Source of the DNA: a virus | Strand: one strand, 5' to 3' | Virus record (IMG/VR): IMGVR_UViG_3300037189_013673 | Location: 6,513 to 70,512 of that record | Length of the DNA stretch: 64,000 nt | Shown here: piece after piece, positions 12,217 to 55,724 of the stretch | How positions within the stretch are numbered: position 1 is the stretch's first letter | Layout: every line of letters begins with the position of its first letter | Translations under genes and position numbers: made by a program | Notes under the pieces: generated by a model | Told to the model about the DNA's origin: nothing | Databases searched by the model: none | The model's input: only the letters and a program-made list of their open reading frames with translations

Positions 12217-12699
12217 TTAATTTTTTAAAAGTTTATAATTTTCATATTCTTCATAAGAGGAAACTACAAACATATCCTCTAATTTATCAAGTTCTTTTAT
12301 ATTATTTGGATTAGGATGAACAGTTACGAAAACAGTATCTTCTAAAATAACAAGTACTCTTTTAGTTCCTGCTTTAGCATTTCCGTAATAAGGAGCTTCT
12401 ATTTCTTTAATCCCATCTTCGGTAAACATTCTTATTTTACCTTTCATTAAAAAGAAAGTGTGATATAGTATATGTATTTTACCTATAACAAACATTCCTT
12501 TAGGCATAAATATTTCTCTTGCATAAATACCTTCTGAAAATGAATGAGTTAAAGGCAACTCGTCTGAATCGCCTTTTATAATATCTGGAGAATCGCTATT
12601 TAATAACAAGCTTTCGATGTATTTAACTTGCTCACGAAAATTTGAACCATCTGGCTCAAATATTATTTGTTGATTATTTGCTAATTCTATATTTGACAT
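12217..12699 (-). CDS. Phage cupin-fold protein
   Basis: H.F..GIYAREI.MPKG...GKIH...H; GTKRV...LEDTVFVTVH. Confidence 0.75.
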   Translation of the reverse strand: MSNIELANNQQIIFEPDGSNFREQVKYIESLLLNSDSPDIIKGDSDELPLTHSFSEGIYAREIFMPKGMFVIGKIHILYHTFFLMKGKIRMFTEDGIKEIEAPYYGNAKAGTKRVLVILEDTVFVTVHPNPNNIKELDKLEDMFVVSSYEEYENYKLLKN

Positions 12700-13631: not shown

Positions 13632-13632
13632 T

Positions 13633-13857
13633 TTAATCTTTTTTATTTTGTTTATTAGTTACTCCATAATCTGAAAAAGTGTACCACATTCTTTCATGTA
13701 AAAAATATATAATTGGTTTTATGCAAATTTCACTTAATCCTATACTACCAGCTACCCAAAAGTTGCCAGTAAAGAAATAAGATATTAAGCAAGTCTGCAT
13801 AGTTCCCAAGCATCTATAACTTATTGCTTTTGCTATATGTCTTTTAAAGTTTACCAT
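13633..13857 (-). CDS. DUF2061 small membrane protein
   Basis: RH.AKAISYR..GT ... YFLHER.W. Confidence 0.8.
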   Translation of the reverse strand: MVNFKRHIAKAISYRCLGTMQTCLISYFFTGNFWVAGSIGLSEICIKPIIYFLHERMWYTFSDYGVTNKQNKKD

Positions 13858-14248
13858 CTTTTCTTAATTGCTCTCTTACTTTTGTTGCTGAAACTTCTGC
13901 TATTTCTTTTGGTGGTATATGCTCAATAATATCATACCCAACTCCTCTACCAAATTCAACAGAGCAAATATCTGGAATTATTATTACTTTAACTTTACCT
14001 GTATTTACTAATAAAGCTAATTGTTCTTCAATATTTTCTTTTATATCCTCTGCTTTAAAAGGATTCTTTTCATTTATTTTTACATCTCTAATTGCTATAC
14101 AAACTTTTTTACCTTCATTTAATGCTCTATTAAATAATGCTTTATGTGATGAATGTAAAGGTTGCCAACGACCAATAAATAAAGCATATTGCTCTTTTTT
14201 TGCTGGTAAAGTTGATTCAACATGAATATTTTTATCCCAATTTTCCAT
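13844..14248 (-). CDS. HxGH-class nucleotidyltransferase (cytidylyltransferase-like)
   Basis: FIGRWQPLHSSH and VSATKVR. Confidence 0.8.
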   Translation of the reverse strand: MENWDKNIHVESTLPAKKEQYALFIGRWQPLHSSHKALFNRALNEGKKVCIAIRDVKINEKNPFKAEDIKENIEEQLALLVNTGKVKVIIIPDICSVEFGRGVGYDIIEHIPPKEIAEVSATKVREQLRKDGKL

Positions 14249-14554
14249 TTAACTTATTGTTGCTATATTATTATAAAATTCAACCTTGTTTGCTTGTAAA
14301 ACTATATGATGCTTATATCCTCCTAAATCTTCGTAAAATTCACTTTCAGTTTTGCATGGTATTTTAATTTGAACTTCGCTTGTTTGATATTCAATGCCAT
14401 CTACAATTACTCTCCATTTTGTAGTTCCATCAAAATCATTAAAGTTAAATCTAATTTGAATATATTGAGTTTGATTTTCTTTTTTAAGAATAATTTTTTT
14501 GCCTTCTAAAATAAAACTTTGTAATATTTCTTTAGTAGTTTGCTTAATCATCAT
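14249..14554 (-). CDS. Hypothetical protein
   Basis: 101-aa ORF within cassette. Confidence 0.65.
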   Translation of the reverse strand: MMIKQTTKEILQSFILEGKKIILKKENQTQYIQIRFNFNDFDGTTKWRVIVDGIEYQTSEVQIKIPCKTESEFYEDLGGYKHHIVLQANKVEFYNNIATIS

Positions 14555-15014
14555 TTTTATTTTTTAAGTTTATTTTATCAAGCAATTCGTTTACAGAAGT
14601 CAATTCATCAACATCAGTTGTATCTATATCAATAAAATTGCTTTCTGGATATTCATAGTTTTCAACATGAAAATTTTCTCTACCTCTAATATTTGTAGTA
14701 TGAACAAATATTTCAGTTACATCAGCTTCAAACTTAAATTTTTCTCTAATATCTAAATATGGAGATACAACTGCGATAATAACATCAAATTCTTCGGTTG
14801 TGTCCAAGTATTTTGCAATATTATAGGCAGTAGTAATATTATATCTTCTACCAGCTTCTGAATAGTCTTTATTTGTAATTATTTTGCGCAAAATATCGCC
14901 ATCAACTACAAATGCTTTTCTTTCAGGTCTTGATATTTCAAGCACTTTTTTTAAGTGATTTGCTAAAGTGGTTTTACCAGAATGAGGTTGACCGATAAAA
15001 TTGTAGATTGCCAT
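14544..15014 (-). CDS. cysC: Adenylylsulfate (APS) kinase
   Basis: GQPHSGKTTLA P-loop, DGD.LR, DYS..GR..N, VSPY..R, YE.P. Confidence 0.8.
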   Translation of the reverse strand: MAIYNFIGQPHSGKTTLANHLKKVLEISRPERKAFVVDGDILRKIITNKDYSEAGRRYNITTAYNIAKYLDTTEEFDVIIAVVSPYLDIREKFKFEADVTEIFVHTTNIRGRENFHVENYEYPESNFIDIDTTDVDELTSVNELLDKINLKNKNDD

Positions 15015-15042
15015 GATGTTTTAGTTTAAGTTTTTGGTTTAA

Positions 15043-15050
15043 CAAATATA
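15043..15050 (-). promoter_or_regulatory. Bacteroidota -7 promoter element
   Basis: caaatata on + = TATATTTG on -, upstream of cysC. Confidence 0.6.
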
Positions 15051-15060
15051 ATAAAAATTA

Positions 15061-15882
15061 TTATACATAACCAAAATAGTCATAAAACCATTTATAAGTA
15101 TTTTTTATATCTCTTGAGTTTTCAAATCCTAAAACATCTTCAAAATCATCTTCTAACTTTTCAAACTTTGGTCTTAATTGGTGGTCGCCATAAATACCAT
15201 GAAAAACATCATTTTCTTGTGTATGTTGTGTTATATTTACAAAATCATGCTTATCATAATAAGGTAAATCAAAATACTCATACAAGCGCTTAATTTCAAT
15301 TTCTGGATTAGCCATTAAATCTTCATATCTAATAAAAAGTATATTTTTGTCAATCTTCTGGTCTATTACATCTTTTAAACCTTCTATAGAAGTTCCGACA
15401 GGTGTTCCATTTGCCCAAATATCAAGTCTTTTTCTTAAAGTAGTTCCTTGAAGTTGCATTGGGTTTTGAACATGATTTTCTTTATGTGGATTTTTTCTAA
15501 AGTTTTTCTCCATAGAAGCATAAATAGAACGTAAATCTCTAACCATACATACCATTTTAGGTGTATTGTAAAACATATTAGTAAAACGATAGTTAGTAAT
15601 CCATGCTCTGCTTTTATCTAAAACATAAGGTTTTTGTGTAATAGCATTAAAGTAACCATCTATTGATGCTCTACAAAAATGCAAAAAAGCAATATCCATT
15701 AATTTGGCATCTTGCGTTTTAAAGTTTGGAGATTGTTGAAAACTTGCTCTTGCCCCAAGTATTAAATCTAAAAATCCACTTGTAGGTGTGCAATAAAATT
15801 GAGGATTTTGTGCTATAATATTACTCAACAAAGTTGAACCAGCACGAGGTAATGATGAATTAAAGAAATAACTTCTTTCCAT
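15061..15882 (-). CDS. Sulfotransferase
   Basis: SLPRAGSTLL PAPS-binding loop, DKSR.W, VRDLRSI.AS, RYEDL..NP. Confidence 0.85.
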   Translation of the reverse strand: MERSYFFNSSLPRAGSTLLSNIIAQNPQFYCTPTSGFLDLILGARASFQQSPNFKTQDAKLMDIAFLHFCRASIDGYFNAITQKPYVLDKSRAWITNYRFTNMFYNTPKMVCMVRDLRSIYASMEKNFRKNPHKENHVQNPMQLQGTTLRKRLDIWANGTPVGTSIEGLKDVIDQKIDKNILFIRYEDLMANPEIEIKRLYEYFDLPYYDKHDFVNITQHTQENDVFHGIYGDHQLRPKFEKLEDDFEDVLGFENSRDIKNTYKWFYDYFGYV

Positions 15883-16300: not shown

Positions 16301-18358
16301 TTAAGGCACAATAGTAAGTATGTTTAAATTACTCCAAACCGAACCTCTTGGTAAACCAGATGAACTTGTAGGTATATCCATAATAGATAAGTTATTTACA
16401 AATGTAGCAAATTCTCTGTTAGCAGTTATGGTAGTTCCAATAATATTGACATTAGAAAAAGAATTAGTATAATTTTGTTTACCTCCTAATATACTACTAT
16501 AATATGAATTATTACAATTTCTATAACCACCAACTATTATGCTATACAAACCACTATAAATTGTATTTTTATATCCTCCTCCTAAAAATGCTTTTCTACT
16601 TCCAGACATTAAATTATTATACCCTCCTCCTAAAAATGAATAATTACTACCATTACATATTCGGTTGTTTTGACCACTTCCAATAAAAGTATTTGTATTA
16701 TCGTTGACAATATGATTGTCATAACCTCCTACAATTACGTTGTGGATACGAATACCAATACCTTCAATTCTATTAGAACAACCTCCACCTATAAAATTAT
16801 TTTGTGAACAAGAACCACAAGAAGTACTCGTAATATAATTATCATTTCCACCTACAATTATATTATAAAAACTATTATATAACGTGCAAATTTTATTATT
16901 ATTTCCACCACCTATAAAAGAACAATTACCATTTATAAAATTAGTATATCCTCCAACAATTACATTTCCAATACCATAATTAATATTATCACTTCCCCCA
17001 CCAATAAAACTTCTACTACCAGTTTTCATTGTATTACCAGCACCTCCAACAATTACATTTGTACAACCACTATAATTTTGACACATTTTATTTAAACTTC
17101 CTCCACCTATAAATGAGTAAGTATTACCATTACCAATGATGCAATTACTTTCTCCACCAACTATTGTAGAAGATTGATTATATCCACAAATTGTATTAAA
17201 ACTACCTCCTACAATTATAGAACCAAAAGATTGTCCAAATTCTTGTATTTTGTTATTTCCACCACCACCTATAAAACCATAACCATTTGAAACAACATTA
17301 TTACTTCCACCACCTATAAAACCATAAAGACCAGAATTTATATTACATATACCACCAACAATTATACTGAAATTATTACTTGTAATATTGTTACAACCTC
17401 CAACAATTATATTGTAAGCGTTATTAATAAGATTACAACAACCACCTCCAATAAAACTAAAATTTCCATCACTTATTATATTGTAATTACCATTAACTAT
17501 ACTTACTCCAGTGCCATTTCTAATACAATTCCTATCACCATTACCTATAAATGCTAAATGAATTTCACCCCCAAGAATTGTAGTTATTTTATTTTGAACG
17601 CCACCAGATATTACACTCTCTGAAACATATCCACAAATTTTATTACTATCACCTCCACCTATTATACTATATCCTACATCGCCAGTAGTACAAATGTAAT
17701 TTGAAAGTCCCCCACCAATTACAGAATTTCTATCAAAAGATTTATTATTAATACCTCCAGAAATTAAACTACCATTTAAAGATGCACAATTATTTTTGCC
17801 ACCACCAACTATTGAATATGCACCAGATGCGATATTACCACCACCTCCTCCAACTGTTGAATAATCGTTAGAAGCCACATTATAATATCCTCCTCCAATT
17901 GTACTCGCAAATGAAGATGAAATATTTCCAGAGCCACCACCAATTACACTAAATGAATAAGTAGAATAATTAAATCTACCTCCAGAAACTACTGAATTAC
18001 AACCATACGCATGATTATTATACCCAGAACCTACAAAGCCATAAAGACCAGTACGATTTTGATGACCTCCACCAATAAATGAGTTATAACCAGAAATATT
18101 ACCTATTCCACCACCTATTGTAGAATAACTACCACAAGCATTATTACAAGCACCTAAAACTGGTTGTATTCCATTACCATTTGCATTAAATTTAAAAGGA
18201 CTTGAACCTCCTCCACCACCTATATATGAAGATAATGGAGTAGTTTGACCTCTTACATCTTTAAGAATAAGTATTCCATCTGAATTTTTAAAAATAGCTA
18301 AGCTATTACCTTCTGGAGTAAATATATTTTGAGCACTTGATACTGTTAAATTTCCCAT
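16301..18358 (-). CDS. Gly/Asn-rich beta-solenoid fibre/spike protein
   Basis: Dozens of S(F/I)IGGGxxN repeats; C-terminal IPTSSSGLP.G.VW motif. Confidence 0.8.
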   Translation of the reverse strand: MGNLTVSSAQNIFTPEGNSLAIFKNSDGILILKDVRGQTTPLSSYIGGGGGSSPFKFNANGNGIQPVLGACNNACGSYSTIGGGIGNISGYNSFIGGGHQNRTGLYGFVGSGYNNHAYGCNSVVSGGRFNYSTYSFSVIGGGSGNISSSFASTIGGGYYNVASNDYSTVGGGGGNIASGAYSIVGGGKNNCASLNGSLISGGINNKSFDRNSVIGGGLSNYICTTGDVGYSIIGGGDSNKICGYVSESVISGGVQNKITTILGGEIHLAFIGNGDRNCIRNGTGVSIVNGNYNIISDGNFSFIGGGCCNLINNAYNIIVGGCNNITSNNFSIIVGGICNINSGLYGFIGGGSNNVVSNGYGFIGGGGNNKIQEFGQSFGSIIVGGSFNTICGYNQSSTIVGGESNCIIGNGNTYSFIGGGSLNKMCQNYSGCTNVIVGGAGNTMKTGSRSFIGGGSDNINYGIGNVIVGGYTNFINGNCSFIGGGNNNKICTLYNSFYNIIVGGNDNYITSTSCGSCSQNNFIGGGCSNRIEGIGIRIHNVIVGGYDNHIVNDNTNTFIGSGQNNRICNGSNYSFLGGGYNNLMSGSRKAFLGGGYKNTIYSGLYSIIVGGYRNCNNSYYSSILGGKQNYTNSFSNVNIIGTTITANREFATFVNNLSIMDIPTSSSGLPRGSVWSNLNILTIVP

Positions 18359-18362: not shown

Positions 18363-18977
18363 TTATGAAATTTTATTCATTGTTACTATTAAAGAAGGAG
18401 TCGCAGGATGTGGTACTGTTAAATTAGCTGCTTCATAAATTAATTGAACTTGTAAATCAGTTACTGAATATACTAATTCTACATATTCTCCTGCATTTAA
18501 AACTATAAAAAGATTCCAAGAAGCAATAAGTTTTGATTGATTAACACTACCTGATATTGTTACCTTACCATTTGTATTACTAACATCTACGCCTTGTTTT
18601 CTTAACCAAATATCAATTATATCTGTACCTGAACCAACTACTCTATCTATTTGCGCTGAAAATTGTAAATTATAAAGACCAGCTGTGTTTACTGTTATTT
18701 GAGAATTAGAAACTATAGATACTCCATTTGAAATATCTGTATTATTTAACGTCATTACTTTTGGAGTATTTATAACAGTAGCAGCTTGATTAGATGTGCT
18801 ATAAAAACTTCCGTATTTAAAATTAGTACTAAAATTAATATAATCAGATAATGGAGCAAATTGAGCTCTAGCATCTTTTACTTTCATTATATCATCTCTG
18901 CTATCAATGAATAGTGCTAAACCATTTCCTTCTGGAGTATATACCAGTTCAGGTGTTGATACAGTTAAATTTGGCAT
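18363..18977 (-). CDS. Spike-like protein with C1q/BclA-like head
   Basis: YGSFYST..Q, ITV..AGLYNLQFSAQ, LNAGEYVEL; N-terminus shared with ORF 16301. Confidence 0.75.
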   Translation of the reverse strand: MPNLTVSTPELVYTPEGNGLALFIDSRDDIMKVKDARAQFAPLSDYINFSTNFKYGSFYSTSNQAATVINTPKVMTLNNTDISNGVSIVSNSQITVNTAGLYNLQFSAQIDRVVGSGTDIIDIWLRKQGVDVSNTNGKVTISGSVNQSKLIASWNLFIVLNAGEYVELVYSVTDLQVQLIYEAANLTVPHPATPSLIVTMNKIS

Positions 18978-23370: not shown

Positions 23371-23832
23371 TTATAATTTTACTGCTATACCATTATTTTC
23401 TTTATAACCTAATAATGTAATTTGTTTTCTTTTTTCCAAAATCATTCTTTGGTTTCTATCACAATTTTTATAATTTTCCATTTCTCCTTTATCAGCACCA
23501 GTAGTAGGTTTAGACGCAAAACTACATGATTCATAAGGATGAGTAGGCGTTTCTTGTAAAGTATCAAATTGACTTTTTAATGTAGTAATTTGAGTTGCTA
23601 AACCTTGTGCTTGAATTTGCTTATTAGTTTCTTCTTGTGTTGATGCTGTCTTAATTTGCGCAGTATCTAAAACTTTATCTGGAGTTGCTCCAGTTACAGT
23701 TCCAGTATTTGAAAGACTACTTGCTAATGTATCAGATAAAGGAATTTTCTTTTTGCTTTTAAAGTAAAAATATGCACCACCACCAACTATTGCTAATGCT
23801 AAAGTACCGAATATTATATTTTTCGCATTCAT
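23371..23832 (-). CDS. N-terminal TM protein, paralog of ORF 23844
   Basis: Near-identical MNAKNIIFGTLALAIVGG..YFYFK and TGATPDKVLDTA. Confidence 0.8.
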   Translation of the reverse strand: MNAKNIIFGTLALAIVGGGAYFYFKSKKKIPLSDTLASSLSNTGTVTGATPDKVLDTAQIKTASTQEETNKQIQAQGLATQITTLKSQFDTLQETPTHPYESCSFASKPTTGADKGEMENYKNCDRNQRMILEKRKQITLLGYKENNGIAVKL

Positions 23833-23843: not shown

Positions 23844-24437
23844 TTAAATAGTAATTTTTGAAATTTCACAATTTGATTCCATATATCCTAATAAAGCTAA
23901 TTCTTTATTTAAAGACGTAATTAATTTTTCTATATTACTGATTTTTCCACTCTTTTGTGATTCTACATCTGCTATATTCCAACAAAAAGTACTTGTATAA
24001 GCATACTTACTACAAAAATCTGAATTACTCATATTCTTAAAAAGATTCTTTTGCGTTTTTGCTTCACAAATTTTATTTGCCAATTCTTTTGCTTTAGTAA
24101 TTTGCTTTGCTTTAGCTTCTAATTCTGCTTGTGTTGGCTCATTTGACAATGGTTTGTTATATACTGGCGCAGTATCTAAAACTTTATCTGGAGTTGCTCC
24201 AGTTCCAGTTCCACTACCAGTTCCAGTTCCACTACCAGTTCCAGTTCCACTACCAGTTCCAGTTCCACTACCAGTTCCAGTTCCAGTTCCACTACCAGTT
24301 CCACTACCAGTGTTTGTTAAACTACTTACTAATTTATCAGCTAAAGGACTTTTCTTTTTATTTTTAAAATAGAAATATGCACTACCACCAACTATTGCTA
24401 ATGCTAAAGTACCAAATATTATATTTTTTGCGTTCAT
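23844..24437 (-). CDS. N-terminal TM protein with (GT/GS)n linker, paralog of ORF 23371
   Basis: Same N-terminus; Gly-Thr/Ser repeat; Cys-containing C-terminal domain. Confidence 0.8.
   Translation of the reverse strand: MNAKNIIFGTLALAIVGGSAYFYFKNKKKSPLADKLVSSLTNTGSGTGSGTGTGTGSGTGTGSGTGTGSGTGTGSGTGTGATPDKVLDTAPVYNKPLSNEPTQAELEAKAKQITKAKELANKICEAKTQKNLFKNMSNSDFCSKYAYTSTFCWNIADVESQKSGKISNIEKLITSLNKELALLGYMESNCEISKITI
24199..24311. repeat. 6-bp-unit tandem repeat (ccagtt/ccacta) encoding a Gly-Thr/Gly-Ser linker
   Basis: Directly visible. Confidence 0.9.
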
Positions 24438-27497: not shown

Positions 27498-27722
27498 TTA
27501 TGTTTTTCTTACTATAATACCAGTACCTACGCCTACTACTATAGCTCCTATTAATCCACTAATGTAGATATTTTGTTTTTTATAATAACCAATCATAAGA
27601 CCTAAAACAAGACCAGTTACTGCTCCGTTTATAGATGCTTTTGTAGTAAGCATCAAAATATCTCTTTTATCTTTGCTTACTATATCTTTAACTTCTTGTA
27701 AGTAATCTGTATTCTTGTCCAT
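27498..27722 (-). CDS. Small 2-TM glycine-zipper protein
   Basis: GAVTGLVLGLMIG and GLIGAIVVGVGTG. Confidence 0.75.
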   Translation of the reverse strand: MDKNTDYLQEVKDIVSKDKRDILMLTTKASINGAVTGLVLGLMIGYYKKQNIYISGLIGAIVVGVGTGIIVRKT

Positions 27723-27723
27723 A

Positions 27724-28272
27724 TTATTTTCTATTTCTTGTTACTAAAAATATAGTTAATCCTAAAATTAAAACACCACCAATTCCTAAAGCAATATATA
27801 AAGTTTTACTTCCACCTGGCTTTGCTTGTGCATTATTATAACCAGCTTGTGCATTTATAATTGCTTGTTTAGTTTTTTCTTGTTCAATAGCTAATGCGCT
27901 TGCATTGCCATCTCTTATAGCATCTGCTTGTGCTTGTGCTGCTTTTAACGCGTTTTGACTGCCGATAATTCCAGTTATACCACCAAATAAAGTAGTTCCT
28001 ATATTTGTATAGTCTCCACCAGTTAAATTAGAATAACCATCCATATTTAAGTTACCACCTAATTTAGAATTATTTTTTAAGTAAAAGTCAATAAAACTTC
28101 TTCTAAATGATTCTGAAGTATTTATACCTTGAAAAACTCCTTTTGTTAACTCTTCGCTATTTGATGGATTAGCATTTATTAAAACGCCATTATTATTAAG
28201 CATATCTGCAATTTCTTTTGGAAATAAACCAACAGAATATGCTACTAAACTAATTAGTTTTTGCTCGTTCAT
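27724..28272 (-). CDS. Putative virion membrane protein with C-terminal TM
   Basis: LNMDGYSNLTGG motif; LYIALGIGGVLILGLTIFL; related to ORF 28272. Confidence 0.75.
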   Translation of the reverse strand: MNEQKLISLVAYSVGLFPKEIADMLNNNGVLINANPSNSEELTKGVFQGINTSESFRRSFIDFYLKNNSKLGGNLNMDGYSNLTGGDYTNIGTTLFGGITGIIGSQNALKAAQAQADAIRDGNASALAIEQEKTKQAIINAQAGYNNAQAKPGGSKTLYIALGIGGVLILGLTIFLVTRNRK

Positions 28273-28895
28273 TACGCTTTCTTTTTATTTGCTTTATTAA
28301 CTAAATAAACTATCAATCCAATTACAGAAACTCCAACAATACCTAATATAACATATAAAGTAGTGTTAGAACCCGATGCTGGTACTTGTGGTGTGTTATT
28401 CATAGGATTACCACCTGCTTCAACTACTTTTACACTTGCAGCGGCTAATTCTCTTTTAGTTTTATTATCATCTAATTGTAAATATCCATTAAATCCTGTT
28501 TGCAATAGATTTAAACCTGTAGTTAACCATTGTCCACTACCTTTAGTTTTTGTATCTTTACTAGGAGTTGTAGGTGGAGTAGTTGTAGGTGGAGTAGTTG
28601 TTGAAGAAGCCCAATCTATTTTCATTGGGTCATAAAAAATTCCTCCAGCATTTGAATAACCATCCATACTTGCATAAAGACTTGTAACAACATCTTTATC
28701 TAATAACAACTTCATGAAAGCATTATAAAATGATTTTGAAGTTTTAGCTAGATTTGTAACCTGTACAGCTATACTCATATCTGAATCAGTAGAGTTTACA
28801 ACGATACCATGCTTTAATAATAAAGCAACTATTTCATTTCTTTTTAAACTTATGACTTGCAATAAACCTTGCGCACCAAATGTTGTATTTGCCAT
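28272..28895 (-). CDS. Putative virion membrane protein with C-terminal TM
   Basis: ASMDGYSNAGG motif; LYVILGIVGVSVIGLIVYL. Confidence 0.75.
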   Translation of the reverse strand: MANTTFGAQGLLQVISLKRNEIVALLLKHGIVVNSTDSDMSIAVQVTNLAKTSKSFYNAFMKLLLDKDVVTSLYASMDGYSNAGGIFYDPMKIDWASSTTTPPTTTPPTTPSKDTKTKGSGQWLTTGLNLLQTGFNGYLQLDDNKTKRELAAASVKVVEAGGNPMNNTPQVPASGSNTTLYVILGIVGVSVIGLIVYLVNKANKKKA

Positions 28896-28901
28896 TTTTT
28901 T

Positions 28902-29312
28902 TTATTTTTTTAAAATTAATGCACTAACTATAAACAACGTAGCAACTACTAATATGACATTAGTTTGATTTGCTATTAAATGCGTATTGTTTTGTGGTTG
29001 ATTAGTTGAATTACTTGCTAAATTATCTTCACCACTTGCATTCATATAATTATTGTGTTGTTCTTTAGCTTTACAGCTACTACATCCACAAGTACTTGAG
29101 CTAGGTGATAAACTTACATTGTACTCTACTATAATATCTTTATCTGGATGAATATCCATTACTTTTTTTAAAGCTGGTTCTCCTATAGTACTTACTAATT
29201 CTGATAAGCTTCGACCTAAATCTCTTCTATCTGTAATTTCATATCCGAAAGACTCTATTAATTGTTGAGTACCTCTAGGATTATTATCTGCAACGTATTG
29301 ATATACTGACAT
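28902..29312 (-). CDS. Putative virion protein with CGCxxC motif and C-terminal TM
   Basis: HPDKD, CGCSSC, YMNASG. Confidence 0.75.
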   Translation of the reverse strand: MSVYQYVADNNPRGTQQLIESFGYEITDRRDLGRSLSELVSTIGEPALKKVMDIHPDKDIIVEYNVSLSPSSSTCGCSSCKAKEQHNNYMNASGEDNLASNSTNQPQNNTHLIANQTNVILVVATLFIVSALILKK

Positions 29313-29326
29313 AATTGTTTTTTTAT

Positions 29327-29360
29327 AAAAAAAGGCAAGATGAAAAATTCATACTTGCCT
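29327..29360 (-). terminator. Intrinsic terminator directly downstream of the capsid-like gene pair
   Basis: aggcaag...cttgcct stem with A-run at 29327-29333. Confidence 0.75.
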
Positions 29361-29404
29361 CTTTCAAATTATACAAAATTTGGTTTTACCTTATAAAGAT
29401 AAAA

Positions 29405-30106
29405 TTACGCTTTGATTTGGATTGTTTGTCCATTAGTAACATTTGGTGAACCAAATTGTTTACTTACAGCTGAACCTCCTAATGCACGAGCAAGATTTAC
29501 GTTATCTGCTGGGTAGAAGTAGAATTTAGTTGTAGAAGTAGCACTTACGTTTTGTATTACTAATTTAGTGAAACCATCAATTCTAAACGGAGTCTTCAAA
29601 GCAACTACGTTAGTTTGTTGCTGATAAGGGTCAATGATTGGAATTAACGATTTTTGTGCTGTGTTACCATTAGCATCTCTAGTGTTAACAGCTACAGAAG
29701 ATAAAATCTGAGCAGCAACAGTAGATTGCATATATGTTAAACCAACTGAGAAAACGTTGTTTTGGAATTGCCAAAGCATTTCTCTATATGTTACACCTGC
29801 TATACCAGATGAAATAGTAATTGAACCAATTACTAAGTTTCCTGAAGTATTAAAGTTAGTGTTGTTGATATATTGGTATGAACCTAATATATCAAAGTTT
29901 GATACATCTGCTCCTGAAGTAGAAGTCACTACTACGATGTATGGTTGTGATTGTTGAACTGATTGCATTCCGCCCATGTTACCATCAGCACCAAAGAAAT
30001 CATCTCCTGTGAATGATAAATCTTGGTCAATAAATCCGTCTGCATTTGAGAAAGATTCATTTGCACGATTCTGTGCGTCCGCTAAATATTTTCTTACGTT
30101 TGACAT
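29405..30106 (-). CDS. Putative major capsid protein, copy B (beta-rich, single jelly-roll candidate)
   Basis: No TM, alternating beta pattern, high-expression codons (TTC, AAC, TAC, CGT), own terminator, near packaging ATPase; fold is inference. Confidence 0.6.
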   Translation of the reverse strand: MSNVRKYLADAQNRANESFSNADGFIDQDLSFTGDDFFGADGNMGGMQSVQQSQPYIVVVTSTSGADVSNFDILGSYQYINNTNFNTSGNLVIGSITISSGIAGVTYREMLWQFQNNVFSVGLTYMQSTVAAQILSSVAVNTRDANGNTAQKSLIPIIDPYQQQTNVVALKTPFRIDGFTKLVIQNVSATSTTKFYFYPADNVNLARALGGSAVSKQFGSPNVTNGQTIQIKA

Positions 30107-30129
30107 TATATTAATTTTTTATTTTAAAC

Positions 30130-30831
30130 TTACGCTTTAATTTTTATTGTTTGACCATTGGTCACATTTGGAGAACCAAATTGTTTACTAACCGCAGAAC
30201 CACCTAATGCGCGAGCAAGATTGATATTATCAGCAGGGTAGAAATAGAATTTACTTGTTGAACTTGCAGTAACAGTTTGGATTATTAATTTTGTAAAACC
30301 ATCTATTCTGTAAGGTGTTTTCAAAGCAACTACGTTAGTTTGTTGCTGATAAGGGTCGATAATTGGAATTAAAGCTTTAGTTGCAATATTACCATTAGCA
30401 TCTCTAGTATTAACCGAAACGGTTGATAAGATTTGAGCTGCAGCTGTAGATTGTAAATACGTTAAACCAACTGAGAACACATTGTTTTGGAATTGCCATA
30501 ACATTTCAGAATAAGAAACGTTTGAAATACCAGAACTAATTGTTATTGAACCAATTACTAAACTACCTGCGGCATTAAAACCTGAATTGTTTAAGTATTG
30601 GTAAGAACCTAAAATATCGAAATTAGAAACGTCTGCTCCTGAAGTAGATGTAACTGTAACAATATAAGGTTGTGATTGCTGAATTGACTGACCGCCCATG
30701 CCATTTCCATTTGCTCCAAAGAAGTCATCTCCGGTGAATGAGAAATTTTGGTCTATAAAACCATCTGCATTCGAAAATGAATTTTTTACACGGCTTTTAG
30801 CGTCAGATAAATATCTTCTTACATTTGACAT
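30130..30831 (-). CDS. Putative major capsid protein, copy A
   Basis: Same length as, and highly similar end to end to, ORF 29405. Confidence 0.6.
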   Translation of the reverse strand: MSNVRRYLSDAKSRVKNSFSNADGFIDQNFSFTGDDFFGANGNGMGGQSIQQSQPYIVTVTSTSGADVSNFDILGSYQYLNNSGFNAAGSLVIGSITISSGISNVSYSEMLWQFQNNVFSVGLTYLQSTAAAQILSTVSVNTRDANGNIATKALIPIIDPYQQQTNVVALKTPYRIDGFTKLIIQTVTASSTSKFYFYPADNINLARALGGSAVSKQFGSPNVTNGQTIKIKA

Positions 30832-30865: not shown

Positions 30866-30994
30866 CTATTTAACTAAATCCAAAGGTACCTCTGTTTTTG
30901 ACTTCAAATACTTTCTTTCAATTGCATTTACCAAAAACATTGCTACCATTACATAAGCTACTGTTTTTCCAAAAGTGATTAATTCGTTTTTCAT
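30866..30994 (-). CDS. 42-aa TM microprotein upstream of capsid genes (not in ORF track)
   Basis: MKNELITFGKTVAYVMVAMFLVNAIERKYLKSKTEVPLDLVK*. Confidence 0.6.
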   Translation of the reverse strand: MKNELITFGKTVAYVMVAMFLVNAIERKYLKSKTEVPLDLVK

Positions 30995-31160: not shown

Positions 31161-31580
31161 TTATTTATTTAATACTAAATAAGTTGTAGAACATATTCCT
31201 AATATAGATAAAACTTTATAAATAAAAGAAGTTGCTTTTTGACCTTTTAATTCTTTTTGTAAAGATTTTGATATTTCTTCTTGTGATTTAAACATTTCAT
31301 CTTTTTTAGATATAATTAAATTTAGGTCATATTCTTTTTCTTCAAGCTTATTAATTATGCTATCTTTTAGCTTTACTTTATATTCTGTAAGCATAAGATT
31401 GCTTTTAACTAAAACCAACTCTGATTTGCACTCATCTCCTGATACTAAATCAATAGCTATCCTTCTTGCAATAGTTGTATCTATACAAACTAAATTACTT
31501 TTTTGAATATCTGTCTGTGAAATACTTCTCCCACATACCAGAATCATAATGCTTAAAATTATCAATCTGACTTTTTTCAT
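31161..31580 (-). CDS. Exported coiled-coil protein, spanin-like lysis accessory
   Basis: Signal peptide, coil, C-terminal hydrophobic segment; overlaps ORF 31495; follows endolysin. Confidence 0.5.
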   Translation of the reverse strand: MKKVRLIILSIMILVCGRSISQTDIQKSNLVCIDTTIARRIAIDLVSGDECKSELVLVKSNLMLTEYKVKLKDSIINKLEEKEYDLNLIISKKDEMFKSQEEISKSLQKELKGQKATSFIYKVLSILGICSTTYLVLNK

Positions 31581-31854
31581 TTTTTTTTAATTTATCAATT
31601 TTATCATTATTAGCACTTATGCTATTATCTAATCCATCTATTTTAGAATTAAGCTGGTCTATTTTTTTATCCAATCCCTTATTCTTTTTGTAAAGTGAAT
31701 CTACTACAGATTTACTTTTAGCTATCTCTTTTTTTATGTAATTTATTTTATCAATTTGATTTCCAGAACTCATTAATGAAAATATTTGAGTTAAAAAAAC
31801 TAAAATTAATAAAATAAAAATTAAACTTAATCTATTGTGAAATACCCTATCCAT
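31495..31854 (-). CDS. N-terminal TM coiled-coil protein, i-spanin-like
   Basis: TM plus heptad coil directly after endolysin. Confidence 0.5.
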   Translation of the reverse strand: MDRVFHNRLSLIFILLILVFLTQIFSLMSSGNQIDKINYIKKEIAKSKSVVDSLYKKNKGLDKKIDQLNSKIDGLDNSISANNDKIDKLKKNEKSQIDNFKHYDSGMWEKYFTDRYSKK

Positions 31855-31864
31855 TTTTTAATTA

Positions 31865-32326
31865 TTAAATTATTACATATCCATTAGCATCTTTTGGCTT
31901 ATTAATAAGCACTCTCCAATTGTTAAAACCAATCTTATCAAAATGTGGCATATCTTTAAAACTTGTCCAACTTCCACCCCAAGTCCAACCATGTTTTGCA
32001 AATATCTTAACGCACTCATCCCAATCTGCTATTCCATCATTATCCCAATCTTTGTGCGTATCCCAAGTTGCAGTTTTACCATCTATAATCAAAACTATAT
32101 CAACTGCCATTCCATAATTGTGTATAGATTGACCACCTCTTGCATTTGTCACTTTAGGTCTTTGATTATATAATGCGTCTTGCTCTGCAAATGTTCTTAA
32201 ACCTTGTGAAACTCTAACTTGTGAACGACCAGATAATACTTGGTTACATTCATCAATTATAGTTTTCATTTCTTCTCTTACTTTTGGATGTAATTTTGCA
32301 ATCCTATCTAATGTACTTTTATCCAT
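31865..32326 (-). CDS. Endolysin, M15C L-Ala-D-Glu peptidase
   Basis: GLRT..EQ..LY, VTNARGGQS.HNYG.AVD, WGG.W..F.D.PHF. Confidence 0.92.
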   Translation of the reverse strand: MDKSTLDRIAKLHPKVREEMKTIIDECNQVLSGRSQVRVSQGLRTFAEQDALYNQRPKVTNARGGQSIHNYGMAVDIVLIIDGKTATWDTHKDWDNDGIADWDECVKIFAKHGWTWGGSWTSFKDMPHFDKIGFNNWRVLINKPKDANGYVII

Positions 32327-32555
32327 TTGATTCTGATTTTAATAATTCATCATTACTATTTGTAAAATAGTTTTTTATTAAATAAACTCCACCTGAAAGT
32401 AAACCTACTTTACCCATATTTAAAAAATCTGTTATTGCTGGAAATACTCCACTAACAACACTTGTACTTAATAAACCTACAATAGTAGTTCCAATAGTCA
32501 TAAAAGCGCCTTTTGATAAGTCTTTTATATTTAATTTTTTGTATTTGCTTTTCAT
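32319..32555 (-). CDS. Putative holin
   Basis: 78 aa with two hydrophobic segments, overlapping endolysin start. Confidence 0.6.
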   Translation of the reverse strand: MKSKYKKLNIKDLSKGAFMTIGTTIVGLLSTSVVSGVFPAITDFLNMGKVGLLSGGVYLIKNYFTNSNDELLKSESNG

Positions 32556-33376
32556 TAATCTAAATAGTATTTAATAATTCTCTCTTTATGTTGCTTAACA
32601 GCAGTTTCTGGCGTATGAACTTTTGTACCTTTACCTAAATCTCTTTTTTGCAACATTGGAGAAATTAATTTTTTATAATTTTCAGAAATATATTGTTCAA
32701 CAATACCTTCGAATTTTTTTCTATCTACTCCTTTAATTTTTTCGTCTTCAATATCTACATAACAGAAAAACCTTGGATTATCATAATTATGATATTCATT
32801 ATTCACATAATTTTCTACTAATTTTAGCAACTCGTATTTGTCTTCAAACTTATTTCTATGCTTATCTACTGAATCTGTATTTTTATGAAACCTAATCCAA
32901 CTTAAGTTTTGCCATATCTTAGGTGAAACTCTACCTACTGACTGAAAATGCAAAATAATATCAGTATCGGTATGTCTATTAGTGCAAATAGCACCAACAA
33001 GGTCATTAGGCAAATAATCAGAAATATATCTATTAATATCTTCGATAAGTAATAAACCGCCTCTATAATCATTTAAAATTTTAAATAAAGTTTCTTGAAT
33101 TTCACTAATTGTCATTCTAACTCCATTTTCATGGAATGGTCTAATTCTTCTAGCTTCAATCCTTGGATGCGATGAAAATCTCATAATATCAGATAGTTTT
33201 AATGCTTTTATATCTTCAAACTCATCATTGACATCTAATATTAATGCTCTACGTGCTGGTATTCCTTTAGCTGGATTACCAAGTATGTATTGTTTTATCA
33301 TTTTATTAGTAGTATAAGTCTTTCCGCATCCTTTCCTTCCTACTGCTACTCCTAATTTTGGTTCTCTTTCTTCCAT
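32555..33376 (-). CDS. FtsK/HerA-superfamily (A32/P9-like) genome packaging ATPase
   Basis: N-terminal Walker A GRKGCGKT, Walker B LLLIED, NRH Arg finger, hhhFQS sensor; 273 aa with no nuclease domain. Confidence 0.75.
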   Translation of the reverse strand: MEEREPKLGVAVGRKGCGKTYTTNKMIKQYILGNPAKGIPARRALILDVNDEFEDIKALKLSDIMRFSSHPRIEARRIRPFHENGVRMTISEIQETLFKILNDYRGGLLLIEDINRYISDYLPNDLVGAICTNRHTDTDIILHFQSVGRVSPKIWQNLSWIRFHKNTDSVDKHRNKFEDKYELLKLVENYVNNEYHNYDNPRFFCYVDIEDEKIKGVDRKKFEGIVEQYISENYKKLISPMLQKRDLGKGTKVHTPETAVKQHKERIIKYYLD

Positions 33377-35013: not shown

Positions 35014-35460
35014 TTATAATCCCCAAACTAACATTAAAGCATCTCTTTGCTCTTGATTAGTTCTTTTATCAAATCCAGTTATCTGTTGAAAAAATTCAGA
35101 ATTAGTTTTAGACCTTGTTGGTTTTATTTGCTTATAATCTAATCCTAGATATTCACACATTTCACAAATCTTTTTTGCTGTTTCATGATTAGCACCTATT
35201 CTTTCACCTATTTTTGAATTATAAGCATTAGATAAAGAATTATTTTGATGTCTATTACCTCCGTTTAAAAATCCACATTCTATATAGACTTCAGTAGGTA
35301 TATTGTCTTCTTTAGAGTTTTCTCTAATGTTTTTTAATTTTTCATATAATTCAAAAAAAGTTAAATTATATAAATTAAATACTTTACCACATCTAATAGC
35401 ACAACCTGATTTAATAGTATCTGGGTCAATACCTACAAATACTTTTTTCTTAGATTCCAT
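35014..35460 (-). CDS. RuvC-like (RNase H fold) resolvase
   Basis: FVGIDPD...SG, VYIE, C-terminal EQRDA. Confidence 0.7.
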   Translation of the reverse strand: MESKKKVFVGIDPDTIKSGCAIRCGKVFNLYNLTFFELYEKLKNIRENSKEDNIPTEVYIECGFLNGGNRHQNNSLSNAYNSKIGERIGANHETAKKICEMCEYLGLDYKQIKPTRSKTNSEFFQQITGFDKRTNQEQRDALMLVWGL

Positions 35461-36094
35461 ATTTATTTGTAAAAGCTTTATGTTTTAATATCTCTTTCCC
35501 GATTTGTTTTGCAAAATCATTATCTGTAGTATAATGTAATCCTAAATGGATTCTACTTATAGCTACATCTTCGGCCATGGATTTACAGAATTGAAATTCG
35601 TTTGGAAATTTATTAGCAATTACATTTAACACGACATAAGCTTCTAATGCATGTCCTGAAGGATATGATGGAGTATCTGCTGAAAAACTATTAAAAGGAA
35701 ACATTGCTAATTTGTAATATTGAGCAATCTGTTTAGGTCTTGGTCTTTGATAAAAGTATTTTAATTTTATCAATAATGGTTTGATGTCATCAATAATATC
35801 CAAAGTAAGATGCTCAACATCAATGCCTTTCTGTTTAAAAGCAGATATTATTGCTTGACTTAAAGACCTATCATAAGATTTGAATCTGGTTAAATACAAA
35901 GAGTTTTCTTGTTCTAATAACATTTCTGTCATATCAACCAATTCATTTAATTCGTCTTTAACCAGTTCAGAATCATTTTCAGGAAATACTTCTCCTTTAA
36001 GTTTTATAAATAAATCATCTACAATAGAAACTTGTTCAAGAAATTTCTTTTGTTCGATTGTAGGGTTTCCGTATGTTATGTTGTTTAAGTCCAA
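35450..36094 (-). CDS. PAP2/haloperoxidase-superfamily phosphatase
   Basis: K....RPRP, PSYPSGH, SR..LGLHY..D. Confidence 0.85.
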   Translation of the reverse strand: MDLNNITYGNPTIEQKKFLEQVSIVDDLFIKLKGEVFPENDSELVKDELNELVDMTEMLLEQENSLYLTRFKSYDRSLSQAIISAFKQKGIDVEHLTLDIIDDIKPLLIKLKYFYQRPRPKQIAQYYKLAMFPFNSFSADTPSYPSGHALEAYVVLNVIANKFPNEFQFCKSMAEDVAISRIHLGLHYTTDNDFAKQIGKEILKHKAFTNKYGI

Positions 36095-40249: not shown

Positions 40250-42391
40250 TTATACTAATTTGTTTTTAGTAAATTTTGTAATATTATTATTTTTAATCCA
40301 TTCTTCAAAAAGTTCTTTATTCATAGTAGGTTCATCATATACTAAAATATATCCTTCAGATTTCCAAAAATTTAAAAAATCTACTATTTTATTCTTAAGT
40401 CCACAAGTAAGAGAATATGAATCACTAGGTGGTAAAACTCCTAAATCTAATCCTAATTGTGTTCTAACATATCTATTATTTTCTAGTTTAAATAACTTCG
40501 GATGGTGTTGTTCCATTGAATTTGCAATCTGTGCATGATATTCAATTTTATTAATAAATTCAAAAGAACAACTTTCAATATTTTTATTGTCTCTAGAATA
40601 AAGACTCCATAACACATATTTTACAGGTTTATCTAAATGTCCTCCATTGACCATTTTTTGATTTGTTTTTTTTATTTCAGCTGTTGCTCTTCTTAAAGCG
40701 TCATGCCAACTTTCACCTGGTTTACGTATTTTTTTAGCTAATTGCATTGCTCCACCTCTTTTATCATCGGTTTTATTTTTAGTAGTTTTAGTAGTTTTCT
40801 TTTCAACTTTACCACCTGGCATAAACGAAGTCATATCTACTTCTGATATATTAATTCTTTTTGGTACTGCTCCACTTCCTAATTTGTTTAAATTCATTAC
40901 CATTAAAGTATCTCCTGAATGGTCTAAAACTTGAACTATTTCTCCATTTTTAAGAGTTACTTGTTTATCATCTAAATCTGAAACTTTATTATTTGAAACG
41001 ATTGATTTTTTACCAAATAATCCACCAAATGCTTTTTTATCATAAGTAGCTTTCATTTTTCCAGCTATCTTATTTCCAACTTCTTTAGCTTCTTTTTTAT
41101 CATAACGTTTACCATAAGTTCTCTGGTACTTTGGTTCAACTTGCTTTCCTTCAAAATTTTTAGCTATAGCTTTTGATTTTCTAGCAAAGGTTATGTGTTC
41201 ACCACCTAAATTCATTTTATTTCTTAACATCTTAAAATCTTCAGTATCTAATTTACCATTTTTATTCATGTCAATTTTAGATTGATTACCTTTTAAAGCT
41301 CCGCCTCTTTTATAAACTGAATCCATAAAACCACCGTTATGATAACTTAACTTTTCTTCTTTCATTTTAATTTGATTTTGTAATTTTTCAATTTTTTCTT
41401 CAACTTCATTCATTTCACCACCATATCTATTAGCATCAGCATCAGACCAATCTTTACCTTTTTGGCCTGCTTCATAGTCCATTTCTTGAAATAAGTTTCT
41501 TAAGTCTCTTTGATAGCCTTTAAGTTCATATTTTAATTCACTTAAATCACTTTCCATATCTTCTCTTCTTTGACCTCTTATTCCTCTAGGTAAATTTGAT
41601 TTTATTCTATCTTTAATGAACATTACTCCATTTGATTGTAAAGTTTTTAAACCAAACATTCTTTTATCTGTAGTATAAATTATACCATCTTCTACTTTTG
41701 AAATATAATAATCTTTATTTCTATAATTAAAAGTAGCTCCTTTTACAGCTCCACCTCTTTCGTAAACATTATTCATAAAGCCACCATTTTCGTATTCAAA
41801 ATAAGTTTTATTTGCTATTTTAATTTCATTTCTTTTAATAAAATCAAAAACTTCATTTTTAGTATTATCAAAAAACATAGTAACTAAATTACCTTTTATT
41901 GAACCTAAAGGTTGACGATAAGACCAATATACAAAGTTTAAATTATTTGCTTTACTATCATTTCTAAGTAAATTTTTAACATCATCAAAATCTTGGTCTT
42001 TTGATAAAATCATTTCAACTTCATCATTATTTCTTAATCCACCACCATCTTCATATTTATCATTTACTTTAATACCAAATTTTTTCATTACTTGTTTTAA
42101 TTCTTGATAGTTATAATTTCTATCACCATAATTCCACCAAGTAGCATTATCACTTTTTGATGGATTTTGAATAGTACCTGAAGTTATATTAACATAAAAT
42201 TTATCATTTGTTTTTTCACTATCATAACCTTCTCCAATAGTTAAAAATCTTTTTGGATTATTTTTTGATTGTATTTTTAAAACATCAACTTCTTTAAACT
42301 TATCAACACCTATTAGTTTTTTAGTTTTATCTAGTTTAATGTCATTATCTTCTAAATCTTTTGATTTTGATAATTCTATTATGTTTTTCAT
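40250..42391 (-). CDS. Multi-domain protein punctuated by [YFM]xxGG motifs (candidate polyprotein)
   Basis: YEDGG, YENGG, YERGG, YHNGG, YKRGG, MNLGG, FMPGG, MVNGG; EF-hand-like DMNKNGKLDTED. Confidence 0.75.
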   Translation of the reverse strand: MKNIIELSKSKDLEDNDIKLDKTKKLIGVDKFKEVDVLKIQSKNNPKRFLTIGEGYDSEKTNDKFYVNITSGTIQNPSKSDNATWWNYGDRNYNYQELKQVMKKFGIKVNDKYEDGGGLRNNDEVEMILSKDQDFDDVKNLLRNDSKANNLNFVYWSYRQPLGSIKGNLVTMFFDNTKNEVFDFIKRNEIKIANKTYFEYENGGFMNNVYERGGAVKGATFNYRNKDYYISKVEDGIIYTTDKRMFGLKTLQSNGVMFIKDRIKSNLPRGIRGQRREDMESDLSELKYELKGYQRDLRNLFQEMDYEAGQKGKDWSDADANRYGGEMNEVEEKIEKLQNQIKMKEEKLSYHNGGFMDSVYKRGGALKGNQSKIDMNKNGKLDTEDFKMLRNKMNLGGEHITFARKSKAIAKNFEGKQVEPKYQRTYGKRYDKKEAKEVGNKIAGKMKATYDKKAFGGLFGKKSIVSNNKVSDLDDKQVTLKNGEIVQVLDHSGDTLMVMNLNKLGSGAVPKRINISEVDMTSFMPGGKVEKKTTKTTKNKTDDKRGGAMQLAKKIRKPGESWHDALRRATAEIKKTNQKMVNGGHLDKPVKYVLWSLYSRDNKNIESCSFEFINKIEYHAQIANSMEQHHPKLFKLENNRYVRTQLGLDLGVLPPSDSYSLTCGLKNKIVDFLNFWKSEGYILVYDEPTMNKELFEEWIKNNNITKFTKNKLV

Positions 42392-42397: not shown

Positions 42398-43885
42398 TTA
42401 TTTAGGTTCCATTTTAGTTCTCATTCCTGTAGCTAAGTTAACAAATACTATTTTACCATTAGCATCTTTTACTTTTTGGTATTTTCCAAAAGATTTTACA
42501 ATAGTATCTCCTTCATCTAAACCATGTTGATATAAATTACCACCTTCATGGTATTTCATCATCCCACCTCTTTTGTAAACAGGTACATAAGCAGGAATAC
42601 CTTCATTAGCAAACATTTTAGCTGGATTCATTGTAGCATCTTTAATCAATTGTTGATTTGCAATCATTGCTCCAGATTCAGCGTAAACGCCATCCATTAA
42701 ACCACCATTATGATATTTAATAATATATTTATAAAGAGGTTCTTTTGAATTTACATTAATATAAACATCATTTTTATAATTTTTAATTTGATTTAAAACT
42801 TTTATTACTTCTTGTTTATTTTTTGGAAACCCAGGTACTTTATATTTACCAGCTTTTAAAAGCCATGAAGGTAAATTATCAGCAGATATATACATATCAA
42901 TATCATCAAGCATTTCTTGAATATCTTTGTTATTATATTCTATTTTTCCATTATAAGTTTCTACAATTATTTTTTTATTGCCAATTGTTGCACCTCTTTC
43001 GTAAACACCATCCATAAAGCCACCGTTTTCAAACAATTCTCCACTTGATAAAGCGTTAGTTTCTCCAACTAATCCAGTATAGTGTGTTCCTGTTTCTCCT
43101 GTGAAATTATTTGAAAAAACTCCACCTAAAGCAAATCTTTTTTCATCTTCATTCATATATTCAAAAGCGGCTGCATTATGCTTTTCAGCTATTTCTCTTG
43201 CGCTTTTTCTATTATATTTATAATCCATATCTTTAATTCTCATTTTATTATCATCAGATAAATCAATATCTTCTTCCATTCCATTAGAGTTACCTAGCAT
43301 CATACCATCTTCTGCATAAGCACCACTCATAAAATCTCCACCATTTTCTAGTTTTGGAAAACCTTTTGGGTAATTAGGTGCTAATCTATCTGTTCTATTA
43401 TCTCTATACTCGTAATAAACATTACCATTTTTAGAAACTCTTCTTCCTTTAGGTTTTGCTCTTCTTACAGAATCTCTAGGTAAATCAGTTCCACGTAAAC
43501 CTTCAAGTTCTTTATGGTTTTTAATAAAAGTTTTTAATTTTTCAATTTCACTTTTCATTATTTTAGTAGCGCTTTCACCATCTGCTTTCATTTGTTTTCT
43601 AGCTCTTACTAAAGCATCGTTCCAGCTTTCATCTGCTTTACGAATATCTTTAGCTAATCCCATTGCAGTTCTTTTAGGTGCTTTAGAAGTGGTTTTTAAA
43701 GCCTCTGGTGTTTTTTCTTTTAACTTAGAAATAATAGTATCTAGAGAAGTACTTATTTTAGCATTTAAGTCTTTATCTTTACTAGTAAAATTGTTTGTTT
43801 TATCTTTTATTTGAGATAAAATTCCTTTTTGAGCATCACTTAATTTAGTTTGGTCAATTTGATTAAATTTTTGTTTATTAGTCAT
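42398..43885 (-). CDS. Multi-domain protein punctuated by [YFL]xxGG motifs (candidate polyprotein)
   Basis: LENGG, FALGG, FENGG, YHNGG, YKRGG, YHEGG; shares AMxLAKxIRKxxESWxDALxRA with ORF 40250. Confidence 0.75.
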   Translation of the reverse strand: MTNKQKFNQIDQTKLSDAQKGILSQIKDKTNNFTSKDKDLNAKISTSLDTIISKLKEKTPEALKTTSKAPKRTAMGLAKDIRKADESWNDALVRARKQMKADGESATKIMKSEIEKLKTFIKNHKELEGLRGTDLPRDSVRRAKPKGRRVSKNGNVYYEYRDNRTDRLAPNYPKGFPKLENGGDFMSGAYAEDGMMLGNSNGMEEDIDLSDDNKMRIKDMDYKYNRKSAREIAEKHNAAAFEYMNEDEKRFALGGVFSNNFTGETGTHYTGLVGETNALSSGELFENGGFMDGVYERGATIGNKKIIVETYNGKIEYNNKDIQEMLDDIDMYISADNLPSWLLKAGKYKVPGFPKNKQEVIKVLNQIKNYKNDVYINVNSKEPLYKYIIKYHNGGLMDGVYAESGAMIANQQLIKDATMNPAKMFANEGIPAYVPVYKRGGMMKYHEGGNLYQHGLDEGDTIVKSFGKYQKVKDANGKIVFVNLATGMRTKMEPK

Positions 43886-55686: not shown

Positions 55687-55724
55687 TATTTTTTGTTTTA
55701 AGTTTCTGGTGTAAATATAATAAA

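Follow-up and report, generated by a model that had tools for sequence, protein, structure and literature searches.

Two genes of equal length that lie side by side on one strand of an uncultured virus genome and encode closely related proteins raise the question of what these proteins build and why the virus keeps both of them. The genes are found in a stretch of 64,000 nt (here called the window), which corresponds to bases 6513-70512 of the IMG/VR virus record IMGVR_UViG_3300037189_013673. The record comprises 70,512 bp, is classed as linear and is rated 98% complete; the GC content of the window is about 27%. An initial annotation had taken the pair for recently duplicated jelly-roll capsid genes and had compared them with the two capsid genes of sphaerolipoviruses. 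With about even confidence, we regard the pair as a duplicated major capsid gene of a tailless-type, probably membrane-lined virus, in which the second copy is optional and is kept for dosage or mild specialisation. This reading builds on the paralogy of the copies, the selection acting on them, their predicted fold, the gene context and the copy numbers in relatives.

Age, selection and integrity of the tandem pair

The two genes and the elements next to them are the following:

30130..30831, minus strand: copy A (upstream), 233 aa, intact open reading frame (ORF), putative major capsid protein
29405..30106, minus strand: copy B (downstream), 233 aa, intact ORF, 83% identical to copy A
30107..30129, minus strand: A/T-rich spacer of 23 nt between the copies, read from the sequence
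29322..29364 (approximate), minus strand: intrinsic-terminator-like hairpin with a T7 run directly after copy B, from the fold of 29313..29404
30866..30994, minus strand: 42-aa single-pass membrane ORF within the 329-nt gap preceding copy A

BLASTP aligned the two proteins without gaps, with 193 of 233 residues identical and 217 of 233 positive (E 4e-147). Identity at the DNA level is 78%, and the longest identical run measures 38 nt. By the method of Nei and Gojobori, 96.25 synonymous differences fall on 158.5 sites (pS 0.61, synonymous divergence dS 1.24) and 55.75 non-synonymous differences on 540.5 sites (dN 0.11), which gives a dN/dS of 0.089. Thus the duplication is old and both copies are constrained; the pair is neither recent nor decaying. 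The initial annotation had correctly described two intact tandem paralogs of 233 aa with many synonymous differences, and the dN/dS comparison that it had suggested points to purifying selection on both. The recent duplication that it had assumed is, however, at odds with the high dS. The shortness of the longest identical run also indicates that no recent large gene conversion took place in the genome of the window.

At 23 nt the spacer leaves no room for a separate promoter, and copies A and B are therefore probably read from one transcript. The 92-nt tail after copy B (29313..29404) folds at -23.9 kcal/mol (z -5.4), and none of 200 shuffled sequences was as stable. This strong hairpin with its T-run bears out the terminator that had been noted after the pair; a simple terminator scan did not report it. 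Contigs of 151 nt from an RNA library lie on both copies, which is a weak hint of expression, with DNA carry-over possible. In more than 25 loci the 42-aa membrane ORF keeps its place directly ahead of the capsid-like gene (tblastn, E 1e-16 to 1e-3).

That the pair is an assembly artefact, or that one copy is a decaying pseudogene, has a negligible probability. The window stems from a metagenome assembly, but nothing positive speaks for such an error, and the two intact frames and the low dN/dS speak against decay. The copies differ at 22% of bases, which makes a collapsed or expanded repeat implausible. Two independent metagenome contigs (L016 and L018) also carry tandem pairs. Both copies are crossed by a 1442-nt contig (29863..31200) of run X3, which belongs to the same study as X1, a possible source run, but to another sample; the spacer is bridged by a contig of run X2, which comes from a different study. 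Copy B is identical to the database protein P0012, which is present on 2 contigs. An assembly artefact, which the initial annotation had named as a possible objection, is therefore excluded for practical purposes. Contigs of runs X2, X3, X4 and X20 were placed on the stretch; no single contig in these runs covers the whole of it, the holes in X3, X4 and X20 are uninformative, and depth cannot rank the copies.

In runs X2 and X4, two short contigs of low depth lack copy A and connect 30129 to 31112 through 4 letters; other short contigs connect a copy end to a copy start across the 23-letter spacer. These junctions hint at co-occurring genotypes with one copy and with other tandem arrangements; the contigs are too short and shallow to be counted.

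Predicted fold and genomic context

Structure models were built for two proteins of the record, the 233-aa protein and a neighbouring 273-aa ATPase. Homologs of the 233-aa protein form 1424 clusters at 90% identity and 488 at 50%, all of them unannotated and nearly all 220-260 aa long. Its AlphaFold2 (AF2) model (pLDDT 87.7, pTM 0.79, from a 93-row alignment) has a helix at residues 2-18, a disordered Gly/Asp-rich linker at about 19-50 and a beta sandwich at 52-217. The predicted protein thus has one jelly-roll core (about 180 aa) preceded by an arm of 50 aa, which would consist of a basic helix and a flexible linker. Over 103-130 residues the model superposes with Z 5-6 on the coats of comoviruses and picornaviruses and on jelly rolls of PR772, PM2 and giant viruses. 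The scores include Z 5.6 for PR772 6q5u chain O, 5.2 for giant-virus capsid jelly rolls, 5.0 for PM2 2w0c chain L and 4.9 for phiCjT23 capsid chain J. In the model, therefore, the sandwich resembles viral jelly rolls, as the initial annotation had expected, and not some other fold.

A specific likeness to P23-77 and SH1, with which a comparison had been suggested, was seen neither by sequence nor among the best 50 matches of each of three PDB fold searches; the capsid chains of P23-77, SH1 and Sulfolobus polyhedral virus 1 (SPV1) are absent from these matches but may rank lower. Foldseek with the 233-aa model gave no match in PDB and five in BFVD at E 1e-3 or below, and its weak matches were to mixed jelly rolls. 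Sequence searches of PDB with phmmer and the family profile gave nothing below E 0.2; for the profile, run on all PDB sequences, no hit fell below E 1. None of 50,697 GenBank phage records matched copy A in tblastn. Pfam, NCBIfam and PHROGs yielded nothing for either copy beyond one marginal match of copy B to a major-head-protein PHROG (E 0.004). In the ESM Atlas one unnamed cluster was found at 0.76, which is below lead level.

In the neighbourhood of the pair, these features matter here:

32555..33376, minus strand: 273-aa P-loop ATPase with Walker A GRKGCGKT, putative packaging NTPase of the B204/A32 type, FtsK-HerA superfamily, from the AF2 model and fold comparison
31161..32555, minus strand: lysis cassette between the ATPase and the pair, variably present in relatives
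31865..32326, minus strand: M15 peptidase endolysin within this cassette (PF13539, E 7e-19; PHROG endolysin, E 4e-27)
27498..29312, minus strand: four membrane-anchored proteins (136, 207, 182 and 74 aa) directly downstream of the pair, in an order kept in at least 25 loci
35450..36094, minus strand: PAP2-family lipid phosphatase inside the conserved, presumably particle-building block, in lake and marine relatives

By sequence the ATPase matched PDB only in the Walker-A region of ClpB, so that a fold comparison was needed to identify it. The AF2 model (pLDDT 91.1) found B204 of Sulfolobus turreted icosahedral viruses (STIV2 and STIV) in all of its best 14 Foldseek matches (best E 1.9e-8, TM 0.67 on the target). 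With VIA, B204 again came first (Z 17.7, root mean square deviation 2.8 A, 185 of 204 residues aligned) and HerA next (15.7); further fold matches after B204 were HerA, DndH and VirB4, and PF01935 is recorded on some homologs. Since both aligners rank B204 best, the module is placed with viruses of the B204/A32 type. The record has five ORFs with a Walker A motif. Among them the B204-like protein is the only candidate packaging ATPase, and no terminase-like P-loop ORF was found.

An A32/B204-like ATPase of the FtsK-HerA family thus stands beside the capsid-like gene, and relatives keep this adjacency. The block in lake and river loci runs PAP2, p146, p348, ATPase, (lysis), jelly-roll protein, four membrane proteins, p115, p261; in two marine loci it recurs in reduced form with a jelly-roll protein that is 37-38% identical. 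The 233-aa protein (64-87% identity) is conserved to the same degree as the ATPase (56-96%). The lysis cassette holds a 78-aa membrane protein, the endolysin and two membrane/coiled-coil proteins, and the four proteins downstream of the pair are putative virion membrane proteins.

Hallmark genes of tailed phages were not detected in this context. Neither PHROGs, run on the 102 ORFs of the 70.5-kb record, nor Pfam, run on the 76 ORFs of the 8.7-64-kb part, detected a portal, terminase, HK97 capsid or tape measure, although strongly diverged forms may escape both. The scanned ORFs also showed no double jelly-roll or HK97 signature. Many small ORFs of the record have one hydrophobic segment. These ORFs and the PAP2 phosphatase, which would fit lipid handling by a membrane-containing virus, are suggestive, though only suggestive, of an internal lipid membrane. 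No terminal repeats were detected in the record.

The virus is probably a tailless-type, membrane-lined, uncultured freshwater virus of bacteria, with a host probably in the Bacteroidota. Runs that contain part of the stretch are labelled as riverine, lake-water, freshwater and drinking-water metagenomes, and the virus group, as judged from its 1424 protein clusters, is abundant in lakes and rivers. A literature search at the title and abstract level found no description of this group. Standard phage annotation detects no structural gene in its records, which makes the group a blind spot of annotation.

Copy number in relatives and competing readings

If the pair were a fixed design, relatives should keep it. 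Among 69 related loci, 41 hold a full-length copy at 50% identity or more. Single copies flanked on each side by 750 nt or more were found in 28 loci (24 distinct gene sequences, some contigs being present in two collections), single copies with too little flank in 10 and tandem pairs in only three (L016, L018 and L040). The remaining 28 loci contain only fragments, diverged copies or fused forms. Single-copy loci occur even within the clade of the window copies (support 100/99), namely L017 (86% identical) and L019 (79%). One copy therefore suffices, and the pair is optional. Two-jelly-roll viruses of the Helvetiavirae type have two distinct, highly diverged major capsid proteins that are both required, whereas here the two share 83% identity and most relatives possess a single gene. 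The two-protein design of the Sphaerolipoviridae type that had been suggested for the pair is thus not what the relatives show.

The other tandem pairs have dN/dS values of 0.10-0.19. Copies of L040 are 97% identical (dS 0.23) and fall outside the clade of the window copies, which indicates an independent duplication.

Besides the main gene, the window encodes a shorter member of the family:

10716..11165, minus strand: 149-aa core-only paralog with a DPYQ motif and without the N-terminal arm, candidate vertex (penton) protein, found by hhalign

This ORF matches the family profile over 100 columns (hhalign probability 95.9%, E 5e-9), and a counterpart of 150-165 aa is present in the records of all four complete relatives and on the 132-kb contig described below. 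One main and one short copy suggest a shell protein plus a vertex protein. A DUF285 protein (8727..10268) and a C1q-like protein (18363..18977) were also tried as family paralogs and rejected, with control hhalign probabilities of 0.1-0.3%. Three loci have a further core-only paralog, 36-40% identical, in the interval from p348 to the ATPase (L004 2925-3380, L032 1619-2080, L036 247-702).

Five loci (L015 10001-11191; L070-L073) carry fused ORFs of 367-420 aa with two cores and a hydrophobic N-terminus. On two long contigs (L015 with L010; L071 with L040) the fused ORF stands beside an ordinary single copy, so that the fusions there are accessories, not replacements. Longer homologs (409-2000 aa) were not found, a weak negative because the fused forms (397-420 aa) fall at the edge of this length range, and a locus search with the fused protein P0219 gave no locus.

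We propose that the coat gene was duplicated long ago in one sub-lineage, in which strong purifying selection has since maintained both copies. Copies A and B would be read from one transcript ending at the hairpin after copy B, and both would be built into the shell. The second copy would mostly add to the output of coat protein, with mild specialisation, and mixed capsomers would be possible. Since close relatives manage with one copy and another lineage duplicated the gene independently, the pair would be an optional add-on rather than an obligatory two-protein lattice.

Several observations weigh against this proposal. The capsid role draws on fold, context and conservation, and the fold matches are generic: the best (Z 6.0) is AlgX, a non-viral protein, and C1q/TNF-like domains, cement proteins and tail-fibre knobs score like coat proteins (Z 4.6-5.9). 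Some relatives have several paralogs, the number being higher in larger relatives (six profile matches in the 102-kb record G002), which indicates that the jelly roll serves more than one job. For ORF 12217..12699 the PHROG match (E 1e-30) is to an entry labelled short tail fibre. The residues that distinguish upstream from downstream copies are conservative. Within L016 and L018, finally, the two copies show less silent divergence (dS 0.36-0.40) than do positional counterparts from different genomes (0.56-0.62); this points either to one old duplication with later homogenisation by gene conversion or to repeated duplication, and the trees do not decide whether the pairs of the window, L016 and L018 stem from one event.

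Some of these points bear on the alternatives. The matches to C1q/TNF-like domains, tail-needle knobs, fibres and cement proteins at the Z of coat proteins would be expected if the 233-aa protein were a non-shell protein of the virion surface, i.e. a turret, decoration or host-binding protein that was duplicated for host-range or surface variation, while the true capsid protein was an ORF that escaped recognition. Extra diverged paralogs and membrane-anchored fused forms in relatives agree with this, as do the many ORFs of the record that have no fold or family assigned. Yet we consider this main alternative unlikely. Host-binding proteins are usually among the most variable genes, whereas the 233-aa protein is among the best conserved of the block and, even in marine relatives where its identity drops to 37%, adjoins the packaging ATPase. 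Nor did the scanned ORFs show a double jelly-roll or HK97 signature; the larger ORFs without assignment look repeat-rich, basic or Gly-rich rather than shell-like, as far as their sequences can be read.

If, on the other hand, both copies are capsid proteins, they could be specialised for hetero-capsomers or for different quasi-equivalent positions, e.g. near vertices and on facets, as in an early two-protein design of sphaerolipoviruses. The long retention of the pair with both copies constrained is in line with this, and three tandem pairs have the same residues specific to the upstream or the downstream copy at positions 6 (R/K), 126 (L/M), 193 (S/T) and 186 (T/N or S). A and B differ at 40 positions, of which the 50-residue N-terminal arm and the loops account for 14 each, strands for 11 and a helix for one, and the net charge of the first 20 aa is +4 in copy A and +1 in copy B. 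Capsomers of helvetiaviruses, according to PMC8812541, are homo- and heterodimers of two jelly-roll proteins that arose by gene duplication. We nevertheless find this alternative doubtful. L017, L019 and 26 further loci manage with a single copy, and the shared differences (R/K, L/M, S/T) are conservative. The more basic N-terminal helix is peculiar to copy A in the lineage of the window and was not seen in L016a or L018a. Family-wide, mean entropy is slightly higher at the 40 differing positions (2.62 bits) than at the identical ones (2.39), as expected for drift.

A broader scenario, which we hold just as tentatively, is that the group builds shells for genomes of 70-132 kb from one vertical single jelly-roll protein and a short vertex paralog, and that its living lineages preserve, side by side, three stages that have long been debated for the evolution of jelly-roll capsids: one gene, tandem pair and two-core fusion. 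The pair of the window, with the more basic arm of its copy A, would then be on its way to a two-protein capsomer. To our knowledge, no described virus builds shells of this size from such a pair of components.

Relation to known viruses and further gene content

Records of the complete relatives measure 72.5 to 102 kb. Contig 9 of a metagenome-assembled genome (MAG) titled Sediminibacterium sp. (L075-L082; 132,486 bp) is collinear with the virus from about 4.7 to 123.6 kb, has an even GC content of about 0.32 and carries at both ends inverted repeats (about 55-190 nt) built from an 11-nt tandem unit. Rather than a prophage, it seems to be a complete linear virus genome that was sorted into the bin of a Bacteroidota MAG, and it would exceed in size all other members of the group seen. 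The binning is a weak lead to Sediminibacterium, or the Bacteroidota, as host.

With Sphaerolipoviridae, Simuloviridae and Matshushitaviridae (P23-77 VP16/VP17, SH1 VP4/VP7) the window shares small single jelly-roll coat-type genes that stand side by side, and with two-jelly-roll viruses an FtsK-HerA-type packaging ATPase in the same block and many small membrane proteins. The hosts of two-jelly-roll viruses are archaea and Thermus, whereas the host of the virus described here is probably a member of the Bacteroidota. The genomes of relatives of the window are linear and bear inverted terminal repeats, as the abstract of the International Committee on Taxonomy of Viruses states for Sphaerolipoviridae. 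Their size differs: according to abstracts, genomes of Sphaerolipoviridae measure about 30 kb and those of Simuloviridae 16-19 kb, and the 70.5 kb found here, with up to 132 kb in a relative, is far above these figures.

Among the A32/P9-type NTPases of the PRD1-adenovirus lineage, B204 of STIV and STIV2 is the protein on which the ATPase model superposes best. The two are, however, only 18-19% identical, and the 273-aa ATPase has an extra helical C-terminal part (218-273) that has no counterpart in B204. Viruses with B204 also have double jelly-roll capsid proteins, whereas the main protein of the window is modelled as one jelly roll. The same difference separates it from PRD1 and PM2, whose main proteins are double jelly rolls. 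The vertex proteins of PRD1/PR772 and PM2, on the other hand, are small single jelly rolls, and the complete relatives likewise combine a main copy with a short core paralog, for which a vertex role may be assumed. PR772 6q5u chain O (124 aa) and PM2 2w0c chain L, which we take to be vertex proteins, are among the fold matches of the 233-aa protein.

SPV1 is an archaeal virus with a small genome. PMC8812541 likens this member of the Portogloboviridae to the stage at which the single jelly-roll capsid gene had yet to be duplicated, and most relatives of the window also carry one such gene. The same source describes SPV1 as having no packaging ATPase, which distinguishes it from the group of the window.

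PMC8812541 also gives genomes below 20 kbp for prokaryotic double jelly-roll viruses and derives two-jelly-roll viruses by duplication from an ancestor with one gene. The group described here, with a matching ATPase and a single small jelly-roll coat candidate, has genomes several times larger than those of the double jelly-roll viruses. Within it the candidate coat gene is found singly, in tandem pairs that differ in age, and in the form of fused paralogs with two cores. With this, the historical duplication scenario becomes testable, namely in the effect of a second coat gene on the shell and in the formation of mixed capsomers. If the capsid role holds, what the window documents is the natural duplication of a coat-protein gene and not a fixed design with two proteins.

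Some further genes of the window, all on the minus strand, deserve mention. A second tandem pair of paralogs (23371..23832 and 23844..24437) encodes N-terminally anchored membrane proteins whose first ~45 residues are nearly the same; the second protein contains a long (GSGT)n run. A Gly-rich repeat protein of 685 aa (16301..18358) and a 204-aa protein (18363..18977), C1q-like by eye, have their first ~25 residues in common, which, as far as the sequence goes, points to two fibre or spike proteins anchored by a shared peptide. The large basic proteins at 40250..42391 and 42398..43885 have repeated NGGFM.GVYERGG-like motifs in common as well as an ESW.DAL.RA motif; no family was found for them, and they may be internal or DNA-associated. 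A polyvalent protein of 1465 aa (49093..53490) combines DUF5824 with an ART-PolyVal ADP-ribosyltransferase domain (Pfam E 1e-11 and 6.5e-10). Two regions (12756..15882 and 54400..58601) hold sugar and sulfate genes, i.e. an APS kinase-like protein, a sulfotransferase, cytidylyltransferase-like and heptosyltransferase-like proteins, three glycosyltransferases and a hexapeptide acyltransferase, which may modify the surface of the host or the virion.

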